Of a stretch of 32,789 nt of DNA, positions 6,776 to 30,858 are shown in pieces. The notes under the pieces were generated by a model. The model did not search any database. It was not told the DNA's origin and saw only the letters and a list, made by a program, of their open reading frames with translations. The stretch covers positions 1 to 32,789 of the forward strand of contig JAZNSJ010000096.1 in the NCBI GenBank assembly GCA_045591155.1, read 5' to 3'. The first letter of the stretch is position 1; each line of letters opens with the position of its first letter. This stretch comes from Acutalibacteraceae bacterium (lineage in GTDB: Bacteria; Bacillota; Clostridia; Oscillospirales; Acutalibacteraceae). Both the position numbers and the translations under genes were made by a program.

Positions 6776-7486
6776 TTAGTTTTCGCTGTAAATTACTGTA
6801 ACGTCGGGATGAAGCTGTAAAATGGATGCGGGAACCTGTGGGGTAATAGGACCAAAGAATGCTTTTTCGAGTATTTCTTTTTTATTTGCGCCGTTTGCAA
6901 CAAGAAGAACTTTTTTAGCGTTCATAATAGCGCCCATACCCATTGTAATTGCTTTTTTAGGAACATCGTTAATAGATTCAAAGAAACGAGCGTTAGCCTC
7001 GATTGTTGACTCGTGAAGGTCTACCACATGTGTTTCTTTTACAAAAACATCAGCAGGCTCATTAAAACCAATGTGACCGTCAAGACCGATGCCCAAAAGC
7101 TGTAAATCTATACCGCCAAGGTCGGCAATATGCTTGTCGTAAGCGGCACCCTCTGCTGCAAGGTCGCCCGATATACCGCTTGGTACTGCGGTGCGTGATT
7201 TATCGATATTTACGTGGTCAAAAAGATTGGTGTTCATAAAGTAGCGATAACTTTGGTCGTGATCACCGTTAAGACCAACGTACTCGTCAAGATTTACAGA
7301 AGTAACCGTGCTAAAATCAAGCTCGCCTGCATTGCACTTTTTAATAAGCTCTTTATAAGTGCCTACGGGAGAAGAGCCGGTGGCCAGACCAAGCACACAA
7401 TTAGGCTTCATAATAATTTGTGAAGCGATAATGTTTGCGGCTTTAACGCTTAATTCATCATAGTTTTTTACTGTAATGAAATTCAT
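6776..7486 (-). CDS. nagB: glucosamine-6-phosphate deaminase
   Basis: The start was moved to ATG 7486 (GGAGG 8 nt upstream); the longer track ORF adds a non-conserved extension. Motifs present: LGLATGSSP, VNLDEY, LLGIGLDGHIGFNEP, AITMGM. Confidence 0.95.
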   Translation of the reverse strand: MNFITVKNYDELSVKAANIIASQIIMKPNCVLGLATGSSPVGTYKELIKKCNAGELDFSTVTSVNLDEYVGLNGDHDQSYRYFMNTNLFDHVNIDKSRTAVPSGISGDLAAEGAAYDKHIADLGGIDLQLLGIGLDGHIGFNEPADVFVKETHVVDLHESTIEANARFFESINDVPKKAITMGMGAIMNAKKVLLVANGANKKEILEKAFFGPITPQVPASILQLHPDVTVIYSEN

Positions 7487-26214: not shown

Positions 26215-28290
26215 ATGAGTGAAAAAGGTACAAATCGCGCAAAATTTTATCAATTAGCGCTGTTTCCTATGAACAACGGCGCTACAAATGTTTATTTTGT
26301 GCTTATTTTAAGTTATATTGCAACCTTTGGCAACAAGGTGTTAGGTCTTGCAATGGTGTTTGCGTCATTTATGGTTACGGGTATGCGAGTGTTCGACGCG
26401 ATAACCGACCCTATAATCGGCGCGCTTATGGACAAAACCAACGGAAAATTCGGTAAATTCAGACCGTTTATGGTTTTGGGTAACATTGTTATGGCGGTAT
26501 CGGTAATACTGCTTTATATGGTCACACCCATAATTCCAAAAGATGCAATGTGGCTTCGCTATACCGCGTTTGTTGCTCTTTATGCTGTTTGGGTTTTGGG
26601 ATATACCTTCCAGACCTCAGTTACTCGTTCGGCGCAACCCGTACTTACTAACGACCCAAAACAAAGACCGCTGTTTACCATTTTTAACACAATAGGTTCA
26701 CTTGTCGGTATGGGTGTTATGCAGTTTGTAGGACCTATTCTTGCGGGCGACGGCTTTGCGGGTGACTATAATGCAAGCTGGTTCCGCATAATGACACCTA
26801 TTGGTGTTGTAGTTTCTATTATCTTAACTATTCTTGCAATAGTCGGCATATGGGAAAAGGACTGTGATAAATATTTTGGTATTGGCGGCAAGCAGGAAAA
26901 GGTTAAGGTTTCGGAATATATTTCGATTATCAAGGCAAACAAACCACTTCAGCGACTTATGGTAGCAGGCGGCGGCTGTAAATTAGCGCTCGCAATCGCG
27001 ACAAACGTTACTGTGCTTTGTATGATTTACGGTTGTATGACACAGTTTGGATTAGGTGTAAGCTCGGGATTTTATGATAAAATCGCGATAAACAACAACA
27101 CAAAAGAGATAGTTGATTTAAAGATTGAAGAGGACACTCAGGTTTTAGGTTTGACCTTTGATTCATCCGCGATTGAACATGTGAAAAAGGGCGAAAAAAG
27201 CAAATATGAAATTGGCAAAAACGCGAGCATTACAAATATTGAAGTAACAACTGCGGGCGAATTGTTCGGTACTGAACCGACAACATCTTCTACCATAAAA
27301 GTAGTAAAGCCTGTTCAGGCGGTTGTTTTATGCTTTGACAAAGAGGGTAATGTCCAAAAAATTGAGCTTGATAACGACGGCAAACCGGTAGGATTGCAAT
27401 ACGATGCTTATGGTAAAATAGCGGGTCTTAGCGTACCTGAGTCCGATACTATGATAGGCCTTCTTGTAAATGATGACGGATTACTTATAAACGTAGAAAA
27501 CGAAGTAATTCCGCTCAGCATTACCAACGAGGGCATAGTAGGCGGTATCAATTCGGAAGATACTATTAAGCTTTCGGGTCGCAACAAGTATGACAGTCTT
27601 TATCTTATTATGATGGTTTTAGGTTATGTTTTTTCGGCGCCGTTCTTCCTGCTTACCGTTCGCACTTCGCAAAAACACGGTCAAAAGAAATCTCTTATGA
27701 CCTATGTCGCAGTAGCCCTTGCTTGTTATATAGGTGTGCTTGCTCTCCTGCTTTTGTGGAAACAGGGAAATCCCGCATTTAATTTTACATTGTTTGATAA
27801 CGGACGTTTAGCGCCAAATCTTTATACTATTTTATTTATACTTTTCTTTGGTGTGGGTTATGGTGCGTATTATTCAACCGCCGATATGCCAATACCTATG
27901 GTTGCTGACTGCGCCGATTACGAAACCTATCGTTCGGGTAAGTTTATACCGGGTATTATGGGTACGCTTTTCAGCCTTGTTGACAAGCTTGTGTCATCAC
28001 TCTCGGCAACCGTTGTAAGTATTGCGCTGTTATTTATAGGCGTTCCAAATTTAGCAACAAAAACCACTCCATACGTTGACGGTATGAACTGGGTGGTAAT
28101 AGCTTTGTTCTGCATAGTGCCTATGGTAGCGTGGGTGCTGACACTTCTCGCTATGAAAGGCTATGAGCTTGACGGTAAGCGCATTAAAACCATTCAGGCG
28201 GTAAACTCTGCAAGAAAACAAGCAATATCGGGCGGTATGACATTACAAGAGGCAATGCGCACCATAAATGATGATACAGTAAATAATTAA
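26215..28290 (+). CDS. GPH-family (glycoside-pentoside-hexuronide) cation symporter, MFS fold, with a ~185-aa hydrophilic insertion between TM7 and TM8
   Basis: It has the GPH loop-2/3 signature DAITDPIIGALMDKTNGKFGKFRPF and 12 predicted TM segments. At 691 aa it is longer than the usual ~450-500. The insert FGLGVSSGFYDK...KLSGRNKYDS is encoded at ~27045-27600. Confidence 0.85.
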   Translation: MSEKGTNRAKFYQLALFPMNNGATNVYFVLILSYIATFGNKVLGLAMVFASFMVTGMRVFDAITDPIIGALMDKTNGKFGKFRPFMVLGNIVMAVSVILLYMVTPIIPKDAMWLRYTAFVALYAVWVLGYTFQTSVTRSAQPVLTNDPKQRPLFTIFNTIGSLVGMGVMQFVGPILAGDGFAGDYNASWFRIMTPIGVVVSIILTILAIVGIWEKDCDKYFGIGGKQEKVKVSEYISIIKANKPLQRLMVAGGGCKLALAIATNVTVLCMIYGCMTQFGLGVSSGFYDKIAINNNTKEIVDLKIEEDTQVLGLTFDSSAIEHVKKGEKSKYEIGKNASITNIEVTTAGELFGTEPTTSSTIKVVKPVQAVVLCFDKEGNVQKIELDNDGKPVGLQYDAYGKIAGLSVPESDTMIGLLVNDDGLLINVENEVIPLSITNEGIVGGINSEDTIKLSGRNKYDSLYLIMMVLGYVFSAPFFLLTVRTSQKHGQKKSLMTYVAVALACYIGVLALLLLWKQGNPAFNFTLFDNGRLAPNLYTILFILFFGVGYGAYYSTADMPIPMVADCADYETYRSGKFIPGIMGTLFSLVDKLVSSLSATVVSIALLFIGVPNLATKTTPYVDGMNWVVIALFCIVPMVAWVLTLLAMKGYELDGKRIKTIQAVNSARKQAISGGMTLQEAMRTINDDTVNN

Positions 28291-28293
28291 ATT

Positions 28294-28340
28294 AAGAAGT
28301 CGGAGTTTGATAAAAACTGCGACTTCTTGTAATGTTTTAA
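28294..28340 (+). terminator. probable (weak) terminator after the symporter gene
   Basis: AAGAAGTCG (28294-28302) pairs with CGACTTCTT (28320-28328), with an inner AGTTT/AAACT extension. The T-tract is interrupted (GTAATGTTTT). Confidence 0.45.
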
Positions 28341-28358
28341 CAAGTTTTGTCGAAGGTC

Positions 28359-28387
28359 TTGACGGTAAAATTTATTTATGTTATCAT
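28359..28387 (+). promoter_or_regulatory. sigma-A promoter (extended -10) driving the structured leader and micro-ORF
   Basis: TTGACG (28359-28364), 17-nt spacer ending in TGT, TATCAT (28382-28387). Confidence 0.65.
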
Positions 28388-28392
28388 AATCT

Positions 28393-28556
28393 TGCGACAC
28401 GAATTTCATATTGCAATTCATAGGAGAGAAGTTTTTACTTCGGTAAAAACACATTCTCTTAATTTGACTATCTCTTGTGGATTGCAAATTCGTGTCGCAG
28501 CGGTTGAGCTATGTGTTTTTCAGTGCGTAGCTTCGGCTGCGCACTTTTTTATTTTT
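28393..28556 (+). ncRNA. structured ~165-nt leader/sRNA of unknown class ending in an intrinsic terminator (candidate riboswitch or attenuator)
   Basis: A 14-bp closing helix forms between TGCGACACGAATTT (28393-28406) and AAATTCGTGTCGCA (28486-28499), extended by GCAAT/ATTGC. There is an internal 8-bp UUCG hairpin, GTTTTTAC-TTCG-GTAAAAAC (28431-28450). AGGAGAGAA can pair with either TTCTCTT (28454-28460) or TCTCTT (28471-28476). The terminator is listed separately. Confidence 0.6.
28522..28556 (+). terminator. intrinsic terminator of the leader RNA
   Basis: GTGCGTAGC-TTCG-GCTGCGCAC (9 bp including one G-U, UUCG loop) followed by TTTTTTATTTTTT. It lies ~55 nt upstream of the micro-ORF RBS. 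Confidence 0.85.
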
Positions 28557-28623
28557 TACAATGGCCGTTGTAACAAATATTGTCGAACCAGACAAATTAT
28601 ATTGTTATAAAGGAGGACTAGTT

Positions 28624-28752
28624 ATGCCTGATTACAAGCAGCTTTATTTAACATTGCTTGACGGTGTCGAAAAAGCAATAAATTTGTTGATAGATACACA
28701 AAGAGCGTGTGAAGATATTTATATTGATACCGACGAAATAAAAGAAGATTAG
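28624..28752 (+). CDS. 42-aa acidic micro-protein (hypothetical)
   Basis: A strong RBS (AGGAGG at 28611-28616) lies 7 nt before ATG 28624. The product is MPDYKQLYLTLLDGVEKAINLLIDTQRACEDIYIDTDEIKED, which looks helical. It lies downstream of the structured leader and terminator. The track ORF from 28561 would start inside the terminator tail and has no RBS. Confidence 0.55.
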   Translation: MPDYKQLYLTLLDGVEKAINLLIDTQRACEDIYIDTDEIKED

Positions 28753-29163
28753 TATTTACAAAACCATCGCAAATTAGCGTGTTATCCTTAACGGAGAATT
28801 TAAAATTGTTTAGATTTTTGTTAAGAACCAGCATCGCATTTGTAAGTACAAATGCAGTTGGGCAGTAGCCCAAAACCCACTAACAATAGAAAAGAGAAGA
28901 TTCGTTTTTTTGCATCGAGTCTTCTCTTTCTTTTTGTCTGTTAAGTGATATGCTGACTACCGTCAGCGTGATATTTTCGCTTTGCGAAAGTGATATTAAA
29001 CCCGATGGGTTTAGTGATATTCTATTTGCTCCTAAACTTGCGAAGTAAATATCACTCGGCTGAAAGCCGAATATTACTGCGTAGCAATATAACTCGCCGC
29101 AAGGCGAATAGAGTTGGCGCAATATCCGTTAAGGATGTCAAGCCATTCAGTCGGGTGCTTTTT
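28750..29163 (+). ncRNA. large hairpin-rich structured element, copy L (candidate novel ncRNA; sense inferred as +)
   Basis: It is homologous in order to the reverse complement of 30436-30800. A 12-bp closing helix forms between ATCCTTAACGGA (28784-28795) and TCCGTTAAGGAT (29125-29136). Hairpins: GCATTTG-N6-CAAATGC (28836-28855), GGGC-AGTA-GCCC (28860-28871), and a 14-bp stem 28891-28904/28916-28929 with one U-G pair. Four GTGATAT 7-mers, each followed by a small hairpin, sit at 28945, 28968, 28990 and 29014. They are followed by ATATCAC (29049), ATATTAC (29071) and ATATAAC (29087). A GCAA tetraloop hairpin lies at 29094-29107. The 3' tail is GTCGGGTGCTTTTT (29150-29163). Confidence 0.6.
28773..28795 (+). 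repeat. 23-bp perfect direct repeat, copy 1 (ATTAGCGTGTTATCCTTAACGGA)
   Basis: Identical to 30452-30474. It forms the outer terminus of element L. Confidence 0.9.
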
Positions 29164-29170
29164 GTTTGCC

Positions 29171-29199
29171 TTGACACGCGTTTGCATTGTGAGTATAAT
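29171..29199 (+). promoter_or_regulatory. consensus sigma-A promoter of the orphan membrane-protein gene
   Basis: TTGACA (29171-29176), 17-nt spacer, TATAAT (29194-29199). It starts 8 nt after the conserved 3' tail of element L. Confidence 0.75.
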
Positions 29200-29231
29200 G
29201 AAATATGTAAATAGTCGCAAGGAGGGGTTTT

Positions 29232-30410
29232 ATGTCTTTAAAGGAGTTACAGGAAAAAGTATACGGCTTTGAATCCGCAAAACGATTGCACAAAGCGACC
29301 GAAGGGTTTGCGCGCTTTTTTGCGTCACTTTTTGTATTGGTAGGCACGTTATTGGCGGCTTACGGTGTGATTGTCACGCAGGTGTATGAGCCTAAACAAG
29401 CGGCACAGGTGGATGTGTGGGTGTTGTCGGATGCGTGGGAAAAGATTTTCTCGCATTTTGAAACTTCTGAGATGCCTATTTGGGCAGTAGTGCTCATTAT
29501 CGGCTTTGGCTCGGCTTTTGTAGCGGCACTTGTCACCCTTTTGTTTTTCTTTATCGCAAAAGCGTTGTGCGGTAAAAAGAAACTGAAAGAAACGGAAGAA
29601 ACGGTCGAAAATGCCCGTCTTTTGCAAGAACGGATGGGTGGGGACACGTACGACTGGCAAGAGCAACAAGAAAAAATCGGCAAACAATTAAAGAGGTTTG
29701 TTGTCTTTTTCATTATATTCTTTTCGATCTTTACAATGATGCAAACACAAGTGGTGATACCGGACAAAGTCTATTTGACCGGCTTTTTATATGCAGTGTT
29801 GTCCTTAATAGCTTTTTACATTTTCAGAGCCGCCTTTATTTTATCTGTCAAGGTTTGTTGGAAGAAAAACGTCAAGTTAGAAAACGAACTTAAACAGCAA
29901 CTGGAAACCACTATAAAATATTTAGAGAGAAAAGGGAAAGAAGAGGCAGAAAAACAAAAAGCGGAACAATTAGAGAAAGAAAAGAAAGAAAATCTGGCAC
30001 GCGCAAACGCTATGTACGAGGCGTTTGAGCAAGAACAGTCCAAAGATATGCATCAGTTGTTTCAAATTGCTAAATTGGGTCATCACGATGCGACTTTGTC
30101 GTACATTGAATGGTGTCTGCCCAAAACGGTGTCCCCTGAGTTAACAAGAGATGAACAAAAGAGATTTCTCAAAAGGATGTATGATGCGCTCGTTATGGTG
30201 GGGAAATATGACCAACATAGCAACATTACCAAGTTTTTCTATTACTCCACCTTGATGGGACTTGGTAAGATCAACAATAAGAAGATCGCACAAGAGGCAT
30301 TGGATGAATTGCGGTTTATTAAGCGATGCGGCGACTTGTCCGAAGAACATACCGAGGTTTGCACAGATTTGATCGAAGCATTGGTAAGTTTTATTAACAA
30401 GTTAAGTTAA
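29232..30410 (+). CDS. hypothetical membrane protein: 4 TM segments, Lys/Glu-rich coiled coil, C-terminal helical (possibly Sel1/TPR-like) domain
   Basis: A consensus promoter lies 33 nt upstream and the RBS AAGGAGGGG is at 29219-29227; 392 aa. The TM segments are FFASLFVLVGTLLAAYGVIV, IWAVVLIIGFGSAFVAALVTLLFFFI, FVVFFIIFFSIFTMM and FLYAVLSLIAFYIFRAAFIL. The coiled coil is KGKEEAEKQKAEQLEKEKKENLARANAMYEAFEQEQ. I recognise no family. Confidence 0.75.
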   Translation: MSLKELQEKVYGFESAKRLHKATEGFARFFASLFVLVGTLLAAYGVIVTQVYEPKQAAQVDVWVLSDAWEKIFSHFETSEMPIWAVVLIIGFGSAFVAALVTLLFFFIAKALCGKKKLKETEETVENARLLQERMGGDTYDWQEQQEKIGKQLKRFVVFFIIFFSIFTMMQTQVVIPDKVYLTGFLYAVLSLIAFYIFRAAFILSVKVCWKKNVKLENELKQQLETTIKYLERKGKEEAEKQKAEQLEKEKKENLARANAMYEAFEQEQSKDMHQLFQIAKLGHHDATLSYIEWCLPKTVSPELTRDEQKRFLKRMYDALVMVGKYDQHSNITKFFYYSTLMGLGKINNKKIAQEALDELRFIKRCGDLSEEHTEVCTDLIEALVSFINKLS

Positions 30411-30435
30411 ACGGCAATTTTCAATACAACAACAT

Positions 30436-30800
30436 AAAAATCACCCGACACATTAGCGTGTTATCCTTAACGGATAACACGCAACGATATAAATCCCTTG
30501 CGGGATTTGCGATATGCCCTCTTGGGCGTGAAGGGATTTATATCATATCGCATTGGCGTAAAGCGACAATATATCGCACGAGCAAAGCAAGTATATCGCG
30601 TTTGCTTACAAACATATCGCCTAACAAAAAAGAGAGAACATTTCGGCTATAAACCGATTTGTTCTCTCTTTCTGTTTGTAAATATGGGCTTGGGCTTAGC
30701 CCGTTCTGCGTTTGGACATACAAACGCGATGCCGGTTCTTAACAATTCAAATTCTCCGCTAAGGACATCACACATTTGCGATGGTTTTTGTTTTATACTA
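30436..30800 (-). ncRNA. large hairpin-rich structured element, copy R (inverted, diverged homolog of copy L; sense inferred as -)
   Basis: Read on the minus strand it has the same order as L. It starts with a TAGTAT box (30800-30795) and AAAACCATCGCAAAT (rc of 30774-30788). The closing helix is GTCCTTAGCGGA (rc of 30755-30766) with rc of 30463-30474, giving 10 Watson-Crick and 2 G-U pairs. Hairpins: GCGTTTG-N6-CAAACGC, GGGC-TAA-GCCC, and the AAAGAGAGAACA...TGTTCTCTCTTT stem. Four GCGATAT 7-mers with hairpins are the rc of ATATCGC at 30614, 30593, 30571 and 30545. They are followed by ATATCGC and ATATCGT (rc of 30509 and 30484), a GCAA tetraloop hairpin (rc of 30491-30508), and the tail GTCGGGTGATTTTT (rc of 30436-30449). 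Confidence 0.6.
30452..30474 (+). repeat. 23-bp perfect direct repeat, copy 2 (ATTAGCGTGTTATCCTTAACGGA)
   Basis: Identical to 28773-28795. Here it is part of an 11-bp perfect local hairpin, GCGTGTTATCC-TTAAC-GGATAACACGC (30456-30482). Confidence 0.9.
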
Positions 30801-30858
30801 TTGAAATATTGTTTTAATATGGTAAAATAAACTTAAATTGTGAACTAATGAAATAGAG

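Follow-up and report, generated by a model that had tools for sequence, protein, structure and literature searches.

REP/BIME-RAYT systems and the IS200/IS605-derived PATEs are hairpin-ended elements that move as single-stranded DNA, and IS1397 and ISKpn1 insert in the loops of REP sequences; IS1397 is an autonomous IS3-family element with its own transposase. Gut-1, a structured-RNA candidate, was described as a likely noncoding RNA that occurs only in the human gut, with neither its organism nor its function known (Weinberg et al. 2010; PMC2864571), and no later mention of Gut-1 was found in the literature searched. Here, we analyze a 32,789-nt stretch of DNA from an Acutalibacteraceae bacterium (GCA_045591155.1, contig JAZNSJ010000096.1, positions 1 to 32,789; the whole stretch is referred to below as the window), which carries two inverted, hairpin-rich elements, L and R, each with a Gut-1-like core. 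We conclude, with a probability of roughly 70%, that L and R are two copies of a dispersed, nonautonomous mobile repeat of about 320 to 400 bp that is lodged in the loops of terminators in gut Clostridia of the Oscillospirales type. What is new is the tie between Gut-1 and a mobile element, the doubling of the array with an added 5′ domain, and the terminator-loop niche. Loci used for comparison are cited by number (e.g., L025).

Element L occupies positions 28775 to 29149 of the plus strand and belongs to the main (GTGATAT) subfamily; element R occupies positions 30777 to 30449 of the minus strand and belongs to a diverged (GCGATAT/ATATCGC) subfamily. The preliminary description of this locus had aligned L with the reverse complement of R over their full lengths, module by module, and this alignment holds, with both copies matching the hidden Markov model of the family (nhmmer scores of 374 bits for L and 183 bits for R). 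Pairwise identity between L and R, which fall into different subfamilies, is just 63%. L is 86% identical to a copy in another metagenome-assembled genome (MAG; L013), and the nearest relative of R is 68% identical (L074).

The distribution of the family was surveyed by scanning one genome per species for the 19-nt box TGTTAAGAACCNGCATCGC, which returned 79 loci. True homologs, either whole or cut by the end of a contig, account for 73 of them; the remaining six, from unrelated taxa, match by chance. All true homologs are located in MAGs of Clostridia (Acutalibacteraceae, Oscillospiraceae, Ruminococcus, and “Eubacteriales”), chiefly from the guts of ruminants and other animals. At least 11 assemblies contain two to four matching loci, and two full copies lie 4.6 kb apart in L025. 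Many copies are situated at contig ends, as repeats are, and many are truncated or decayed. The element interiors of different species are up to 95 to 96% identical (L017 compared with L011 and L032), and no flanking sequence is shared between any two loci of the family; likewise, no orthologous flanks were found between the window and the other copies. The conserved interior extends from G(Y)GTKRT..CTTAWCGGAGAATTT to ..CACGC(Y)AA, and the linkers that define the subfamilies (GTGATAT, GCGATAT, TCGATAT, and ATGAAAT) differ in such a way that all heptads of a copy shift together. No recurrent neighboring protein family was detected beside the family loci, the open reading frames (ORFs) within the elements are spurious, and no transposase is encoded within ∼4 kb of any of the 73 loci. 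The family is, in short, multicopy at nonorthologous sites, with an interior conserved between species and a bracketing stem unique to each locus. A single scan of the JGI metagenomes added one further true copy (L101), and the family is rare there. Three pattern scans of viral contigs gave chance matches or nothing, and a BLAST search of plasmids gave no match; the corresponding phage search returned one unverified, phage-labeled fecal contig, bearing a copy that consists of the array alone.

A comparison of filled and empty sites was possible by using the RluD protein of L025 as a handle for relatives. Downstream of rluD, L025 reads AAAAGCACCGGAGA|GATACGCTG..∼370 nt..CACGCTA|TCTCCGGTGCTTTTTT or, in a fuller reading, ..tgAAAAGCACCGGAGA GATACG[CTGTTG..element..TATCACGC]TA TCTCCGGTGCTTTTTTG. 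The corresponding site in L096 (GCA_045651085.1), whose RluD is 95% identical, is empty and reads ..AAAAGCACCGGAGA-GT-TCTCCGGTGC, where the contig ends. The two loci share the same terminator stem (GCACCGGAGA/TCTCCGGTGC), which encloses a minimal loop in L096 versus an element of ∼370 nt in L025, with a duplication no longer than 1 to 2 nt. In another relative, L095 (RluD 94% identical), a 69-nt spacer holds the hairpin AAACGGCGTGATGTC-GCAAGCG-GACATCACGCCGTTTTTT at positions 2612 to 2655 (GGCGTGATGTC-GCAAGCG-GACATCACGCC plus a T-run). Its likeness to the element is confined to the terminal repeat/hairpin, and it may be a deletion remnant that now serves as a terminator.

Two further loci bear on the sites occupied in the window. 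L099 carries the closest homolog (83% identical) of ORF392, the ORF located between L and R. In L099, a small ORF is followed by a plain terminator, AACATCCCAAACGC-GAAA-GCGTTCGGGATGTT, and then by a promoter region nearly identical to positions 29158 to 29235 of the window. L takes the place of this plain terminator, and the outer boxes of L look like its decayed arms. In the syntenic locus L093, the symporter gene is separated from the MATE gene by 107 nt containing one terminator (6893 to 7001); the whole 2.46-kb island is missing. The island (28291 to 30858) had originally been reported between a symporter gene and a MATE gene, and this placement holds.

Outside the conserved interior, the sequence is locus specific, yet the two sides of each copy pair with one another. 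Typically, an A-run and one strand of a stem of 8 to 12 GC-rich pairs precede the element, with the complementary strand and a T-run behind it, and a strong outer stem is present in ∼28 of ∼36 complete copies. The stop codon of the upstream gene typically lies 10 to 50 nt before the outer stem. The upstream gene is co-oriented in 39/49 cases and the downstream gene is convergent in 29/36; among flanking gene pairs, 16 are convergent (+−), 6 are ++, 4 are −−, and none is divergent (−+). From the position of the outer stem and the flanking gene pairs, it follows that the element always lies at the 3′ end of a gene, in either orientation. The outer stems display the anatomy of intrinsic terminators, often bidirectional ones. 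When each element was folded together with both flanks, the outer stem formed in the minimum free energy (MFE) structure in 28 of 28 cases on each strand. No conserved promoter was found upstream of the copies, and the best match upstream of R on its own strand is weak (9/12). In the window, L lies in the terminator between a 42-codon ORF and the ORF392 promoter and would be transcribed as the 3′ untranslated region (UTR) of the small ORF; R lies behind ORF392 and would form its 3′ UTR, in antisense orientation.

These observations could also be accommodated by a beneficial, cis-acting 3′-UTR RNA module that was mobile in origin and has been domesticated for bidirectional termination, insulation of convergent genes, protection of mRNA 3′ ends, or titration of an RNA-binding protein on the GUGAUAU linkers. 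Consistent with such a role, the copies always lie at gene 3′ ends (16/26 between convergent genes), the outer stem is restored in the folds predicted for either strand, conservation of the interiors across species is high, the 7-mers of the linkers vary far less than the hairpin sequences between them, and array-only copies persist beside terminators and tRNA genes. However, presence and absence differ at the same locus in close relatives with no other change, many copies are truncated or decayed, and no candidate binding protein is linked to the elements. We consider domestication unlikely on this balance.

The internal organization of the elements is best followed in L. Its 5′ outer box (28750 to 28774) comprises TAGTAT, which overlaps the stop codon of the small ORF, and the 15-mer AAAACCATCGCAAAT, which occurs exactly twice in the window, in inverted orientation. 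The 5′ terminal region (28777 to 28837), where conservation in the family alignment is highest, includes the inverted-repeat strand GCGTGTTATCCTTAACGGA, the box GGAGAATTT, and the box TTGTTAAGAACCAGCATCGC, with local pairing of CTTAAC and GTTAAG. Folding and inverted-repeat searches place three hairpins next, H1 (28836 to 28855), H2 (28858 to 28873), and H3 (28883 to 28937). The array (28945 to 29114), supported by the Gut-1 matches described below and by hairpin variants, consists of four GTGATAT repeats separated by hairpins of 15 to 17 nt, an apex, and then ATATCAC, ATATTAC, ATATAAC, and ATAGAGT with their hairpins. The 3′ terminal region (29115 to 29149) is a degenerate hairpin holding the 3′ inverted-repeat strand TCCGTTAAGGATGTCAAGC; this hairpin is perfect in relatives (GGCGTGATACTC-CGTTAA-GAGTATCACGCC) and in R (GCGTGTTATCC-GTTAA-GGATAACACGC). 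It is followed by the 3′ outer box GTCGGGTGCTTTTT (29150 to 29163). The 5′ and 3′ outer boxes of L are probably the decayed 5′ arm and the decayed 3′ arm plus T-run, respectively, of its host terminator. In R, on the minus strand, the 5′ outer box (30774 to 30800) reads TAGTAT..AAAACCATCGCAAAT, the array spans approximately 30484 to 30622, and the 3′ outer box is GTCGGGTGATTTTT (30436 to 30448); on its T-run side, the 5′ outer box passes into the promoter region of the MATE gene, a region conserved in L093. The modules recognized previously were all found again here, among them GGAGAATTT, TTGTTAAGAACC-R-GCATCGC, three hairpins, an array in which 7-mers alternate with hairpins, and a GTCGGGTG-N-TTTTT tail.

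The terminal strands of L (28777 to 28795 and 29125 to 29143) are 19 nt long and 84% complementary (16/19 positions, counted by eye), and the two ends of R agree at 14/19 positions, also by eye. The 3′ terminal repeat is itself half of a local palindrome. A separate comparison showed that the 5′ end of L (28770 to 28798) is 93% identical over 29 nt to the 3′ terminal hairpin of R (30449 to 30477, plus-strand reading), with the terminal-repeat strand matching at 19/19 positions. These two ends are closer to each other than the two ends of either element are, which hints at an exchange between L and R.

At gathering thresholds, Rfam returned no match in the window. A permissive scan, however, detected Gut-1 (RF01706; gathering threshold, 50 bits) at 28943 to 29025 on the plus strand (49.9 bits) and at 29044 to 29116 on the minus strand (46.9 bits), with a weak match inside R (30482 to 30553; 27.4 bits). 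The threshold is exceeded in the homologous copies L023 (61.8 bits), L010 (59.1 bits), L029 (51.3 bits), and L025 (50.3 bits). Because the matches in L fall on opposite strands, its array is composed of two Gut-1-like halves in inverted orientation. L also fits the Gut-1 layout, in which short, variable hairpins lie between repeated linkers of the GUGA(A/U)AU type, with ATATCAC, ATATTAC, and ATATAAC in the inverted half. In the Gut-1 seed alignment (PMC2864571, supplementary file 95), an inverted AUAUCAC half is already present in the unmodeled flanks. The earlier classification of the element as an RNA of no known class is thus not sustained for the array, which matches a known Rfam family just below the gathering threshold and has relatives that score 50 to 62 bits.

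The element is modular, comprising a three-hairpin 5′ domain, the doubled inverted Gut-1 array, and a terminal hairpin, and versions with the array only or the 5′ domain only exist. Pure Gut-1-type copies that lack the 5′ domain were observed in L010 (2925 to 3101), where the copy adjoins a terminator and a tRNA gene, and in L048 (6277 to 6483), L038 (1479 to 1650), and L061 (5669 to 5872). Short versions of ∼200 nt, with the 5′ domain and the first array hairpin, were observed in L020 (386 to 608), L047 (2753 to 2982), and L048 (3502 to 3713). The sequences of the L020 and L048 short versions close on a ..TTAAGAAC.. or ..CAAGAAC.. strand, which could pair with the 5′ terminal repeat.

The preliminary description interpreted L and R as RNA-level structures with plus sense for L and minus sense for R, and a corresponding explanation would make each copy the gene of a discrete, strand-specific, trans-acting structured noncoding RNA of ∼400 nt with a closing helix and its own terminator. 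In favor of such a gene, the Gut-1 core was graded as a likely RNA (PMC2864571), and L and R fold far better than their dinucleotide shuffles. The z-scores (−9.2 to −9.7) are strongly negative on both strands alike, and in the window, the sense strands of L and R are 9 to 15 kcal/mol better than the antisense strands. Over 33 nonidentical copies, however, the summed MFE is −4759 kcal/mol for the sense strands versus −4761 kcal/mol for the antisense strands, and the sense strand is the better one in 13/33. The argument from G-U pairs in L and R is not a property of the family either, with 319 such pairs in sense and 340 in antisense. Copies occur in both orientations relative to the flanking transcription, the weak match upstream of R is the only hint of a promoter, the flanks consist of terminator arms particular to each locus, and there is an empty site. 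As for the 12-bp closing helix, the complementarity of the terminal strands is present, but the helix appears in the MFE structures of 0/28 relatives because the local 5′ (GTTCTTA..TAAGAAC) and 3′ terminal hairpins win. Therefore, separate strand-specific RNA genes appear improbable to us. The portrayal of L and R as structured, noncoding, conserved, and present as two diverged inverted copies survives, and that of a private, strand-specific, unclassified RNA gene does not.

The hairpins are maintained by compensatory changes, which count in favor of an RNA gene. The change from GCATTTG/CAAATGC to GCGTTTG/CAAACGC noted previously between L and R is real, and half-changed intermediates occur in other copies. 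Three hairpins are each present in several fully paired versions, as had been proposed for the hairpins in general: the pre-apex hairpin (AAGCCC/GGGCTT, GAAGCC/GGCTTC, AAACCC/GGGTTT, AAGTCC/GGACTT, and GAAACC/GGTTTC), the apex hairpin (TTGC/GCAA, TCGC/GCGA, TGTCC/GGACA, and TGCC/GGCA), and the first hairpin of the 3′ half (TCGGC/GCCGA, GATGC/GCATC, TATGC/GCATA, and TTGAAC/GTTCAA). A 10-nt long-range pairing, TCTATTCGCC/GGCGAATAGA, is replaced by TATATTCGCC/GGCGAATATA in another lineage, and array-only and L023-type copies show covariation at one of its positions, with A-T in place of C-G; in L, the pairing would join the apex (29021 to 29030, with TCTATTTGCT instead of TCTATTCGCC) to the 3′ end of the array (29103 to 29112). 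H1 and H2 of the 5′ domain show chiefly single disruptive changes of the G-T and A-C types, as in decaying copies. The outer 7-mers of the 3′ half are degenerate (ATAACAC and ATAGAAC), and the last one pairs with the apex as TCTATTCGCC/GGCGAATAGA. A ladder of four-way junctions, in which 5′ 7-mers would pair with 3′ 7-mers, was considered and rejected, as regular complementarity is limited to the innermost pair. The full MAFFT alignment was too noisy for RNAalifold to yield a usable consensus structure. The paired variants indicate a structure under selection, with equal predicted folding on both strands.

That the heptads form a protein-binding array on duplex DNA (iteron, centromere, or operator-like, reminiscent of the WATCACW sites of the inc18-plasmid omega repressor and similar heptad arrays), with GTGATAT/ATATCAC sites about two helical turns apart, first direct and then inverted, is very improbable: the start-to-start spacing of 22 to 24 bp, the flip of orientation at the apex, and the joint change of all heptads between subfamilies would suit it, but the spacers are consistently palindromic with compensatory changes that a duplex-DNA site does not need, the 3′-half heptads are degenerate, no DNA-binding gene is linked, and the searches gave no plasmid or phage context (no plasmid match and one unverified phage-labeled contig).

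If L and R are copies of a dispersed mobile repeat, as we favor, the target of insertion would be the single-stranded loop of a terminator hairpin, and the copies would probably be moved by a trans-acting enzyme for hairpin or single-stranded DNA. The hairpin-embedded ends, the imperfect terminal repeats of ∼19 nt, the lack of a visible target-site duplication, and the hairpin-loop targets would favor an HUH/Y1-type enzyme (IS200/IS605- or RAYT-like) or another structure-recognizing recombinase. Owing to the dense self-folding of the element, the split halves of the terminator would re-pair in transcripts of either direction, so that termination would survive and the insertion would be nearly neutral. 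Preserved bidirectional termination would in turn explain selection for hairpins on both strands. One might go further and tentatively propose a structure-guided mobile element that recognizes any terminator-hairpin loop through its single-stranded or cruciform DNA, a portable, self-insulating “terminator guest” with a Gut-1 core whose ornate, strand-symmetric fold would have evolved to keep the split terminator functional in both directions, although we consider this unlikely. Still bolder would be a variant in which the host exploits the doubled Gut-1 array, either as a functional RNA or as a scaffold for protein binding.

Several points weigh against a dispersed mobile repeat in terminator loops. 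In the window and within ∼4 kb of the 73 loci, neither a transposase nor an autonomous partner sharing the ends of the element was found. There is one precise empty/filled pair, and the empty contig stops inside the 3′ arm. No consistent direct repeat surrounds the copies, with TA...TA present in some only, and a fixed TA or AAA target duplication was rejected as inconsistent across copies; the exact ends of the element are uncertain to within a few nucleotides. The preservation of termination is a prediction from MFE structures. The compensatory changes and the covarying 10-nt pairing exceed the needs of a decaying selfish repeat, and an RNA function could account for them. A plain MITE (miniature inverted-repeat transposable element) had been anticipated to show many near-identical copies, target-site duplications, and no covariation; the dispersed near-identical copies are there, but the duplications are missing and covariation is present.

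The last point on this side concerns the outer boxes. L and R both have AAAACCATCGCAAAT on the 5′ side and GTCGGGTG-N-TTTTT on the 3′ side, despite belonging to different subfamilies, and the plus-strand order of the boxes is a-L-b′...ORF392...b-rc(R)-a′, where rc denotes the reverse complement. The common boxes are unaccounted for by simple independent insertion. Worked by hand, neither a single inversion nor a Campbell-type recombination/integration between two terminator-nested copies reproduces the observed order. It is possible that the common boxes result from an inverted duplication of the terminator with its element, followed by gene conversion of one interior. Similar outer boxes surround a copy in another MAG (L022/L070).

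ORF392 (29232 to 30410, plus strand; 392 amino acids [aa]) is an orphan that, by eye, is a candidate membrane protein from its hydrophobic segments, and it has no Pfam match. Its promoter (29171 to 29199, plus strand) matches the sigma-70 consensus at 12/12 positions (TTGACA-17-TATAAT) and lies outside the element, in host sequence conserved in L099. Nine homologs of ORF392 were found. The five that were looked up (L007 to L009, L099, and L100) lack a flanking element at a significant score, contrary to the supposed link between this ORF and the elements, and L-ORF392-R was rejected as a recurring composite unit on the same grounds; four of the five (L007 to L009 and L100) occur in unrelated contexts, with short flanks. 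Judged by these five, ORF392 does not appear to be functionally tied to the elements.

Directly before L is the 42-codon ORF (28624 to 28752, plus strand), which has a strong ribosome-binding site. A different small ORF, Cys-rich and 55 codons long, takes its place in L099 (200 to 367), and the two show only a weak C-terminal resemblance (blastp E = 0.43). Elsewhere in the island, a possible small RNA gene was noted at 28359 to 28555, with a TTGACG-17-TATCAT promoter with an extended TG, a 107-nt hairpin (28393 to 28499) closed by a perfect 14-bp stem (TGCGACACGAATTT/AAATTCGTGTCGCA), and an intrinsic terminator (28522 to 28545) followed by a T-run; this candidate has no Rfam match. The 21-nt direct repeat GTTKTAACAARTWTTGTCGAA (86% identical) is located just upstream of the promoter of the candidate small RNA (28334 to 28354) and again upstream of the small-ORF promoter (28567 to 28587), and is possibly an operator common to both.

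The remainder of the window consists of ordinary chromosomal sequence, with mfd, rplM, recG, fakA, ABC, AraC, GH3, GH2, MFS symporter, and MATE genes, and the statement that the region lacks a transposase, integrase, or Cas-like gene holds across the whole 32.8 kb. The MFS_2 sugar symporter (26215 to 28290) is 691 aa long, versus 516 aa in L093 and 688 aa in L094. Its Pfam match falls into two separate stretches and therefore implies an insert of ∼175 aa. The symporter-MATE gap of L094 is filled by a peptidyl-prolyl isomerase gene and an acetyltransferase gene; in L090, unrelated genes are followed by the acetyltransferase gene alone and then by the MATE gene.

With these results, an orphan Rfam family gains a genomic identity, with Gut-1 as the core that recurs within a modular, mobile repeat of named gut Clostridia lineages. 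They also advise caution about metagenomic candidates for “structured RNA” that are supported by covariation, since such candidates can be mobile DNA with selection on the fold of either strand. If loop targeting and preserved termination are true, the family would provide a natural safe-haven insertion strategy and a test of the insert size that an intrinsic terminator tolerates. In practice, MAG assemblies break at these repeats, leaving them at contig ends, and the repeats should be masked or labeled by annotation pipelines.

Among the known systems with which the family was compared, TIGR guide arrays came into question, since variable palindromic units occur in some of them. A TIGR array has alternating edge/loop repeats or stem-loops, unpaired 8- to 12-nt spacers, box C/D flanks, and an adjacent Nop-domain tas gene (PMC12045711). 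The variable parts of the present array are instead self-complementary stems with 3- to 5-nt loops, no recurrent neighbor protein was seen at the family loci, and no Nop-domain or nuclease gene is present in the window; a TIGR array was rejected. Group IIC introns resemble the family in targeting a stem-loop (terminator/palindrome) rather than a sequence, but they insert downstream of the stem and act as ribozymes that carry a reverse transcriptase (PMC1702495), in contrast to elements lying inside the loop. With that difference, and with no Rfam intron match even at an E value of ≤10, a class C group II intron was also rejected. IS1397-type elements share insertion into the loop itself but, unlike the L/R family, are autonomous and encode a transposase.

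The comparison with REP/BIME-RAYT systems and IS200/IS605 PATEs drew in addition on PMC8266576 and PMC3479197. These systems are alike in having ends in hairpins with neither long perfect terminal repeats nor target-site duplications, in lying at gene 3′ ends between convergent genes, and in forming hairpin arrays of alternating orientation. The L/R family differs in that it has no GTAG-type guide tetranucleotide and in that the hairpins of a single element vary in sequence. Near the copies and in the window, no RAYT, TnpA, or TnpB gene and no gene of a Y1 HUH transposase was found, no fixed tetranucleotide is present at the junctions, and insertion 3′ of one is not evident.

Bacterial MITEs and intergenic repeats (the pneumococcal BOX, RUP, and SPRITE elements, Correia elements, and ERIC; PMC3184786 and PMC10969869) are likewise small, noncoding, multicopy, and dispersed. 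They share empty/filled polymorphism (L025 versus L096 and the L site of the window versus L099), the insertion of elements into one another, and perhaps imperfect terminal inverted repeats. BOX is similarly modular, with a variable number of internal units, and SPRITE has stable RNA folds and an association with terminators. The L/R family differs from MITEs in showing no target-site duplication and no cognate insertion sequence within ∼4 kb of the 73 loci, in its larger size (320 to 400 bp) with hairpins kept by compensatory change, and in its target, a preexisting terminator hairpin loop, which is unreported in the two reviews cited (PMC3184786 and PMC10969869).

With Gut-1 itself, the family shares three small, variable hairpins split by a repeated GUGA(A/U)AU linker and a source in Clostridia-type sequence of the gut microbiome. 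The Rfam model covers one half of what is, in L and R, a doubled and inverted motif. Copies of the L/R type add a 5′ domain of ∼190 nt before the array and a terminal hairpin after it, and, on the explanation favored here, the complete unit is mobile and sits within terminator loops.

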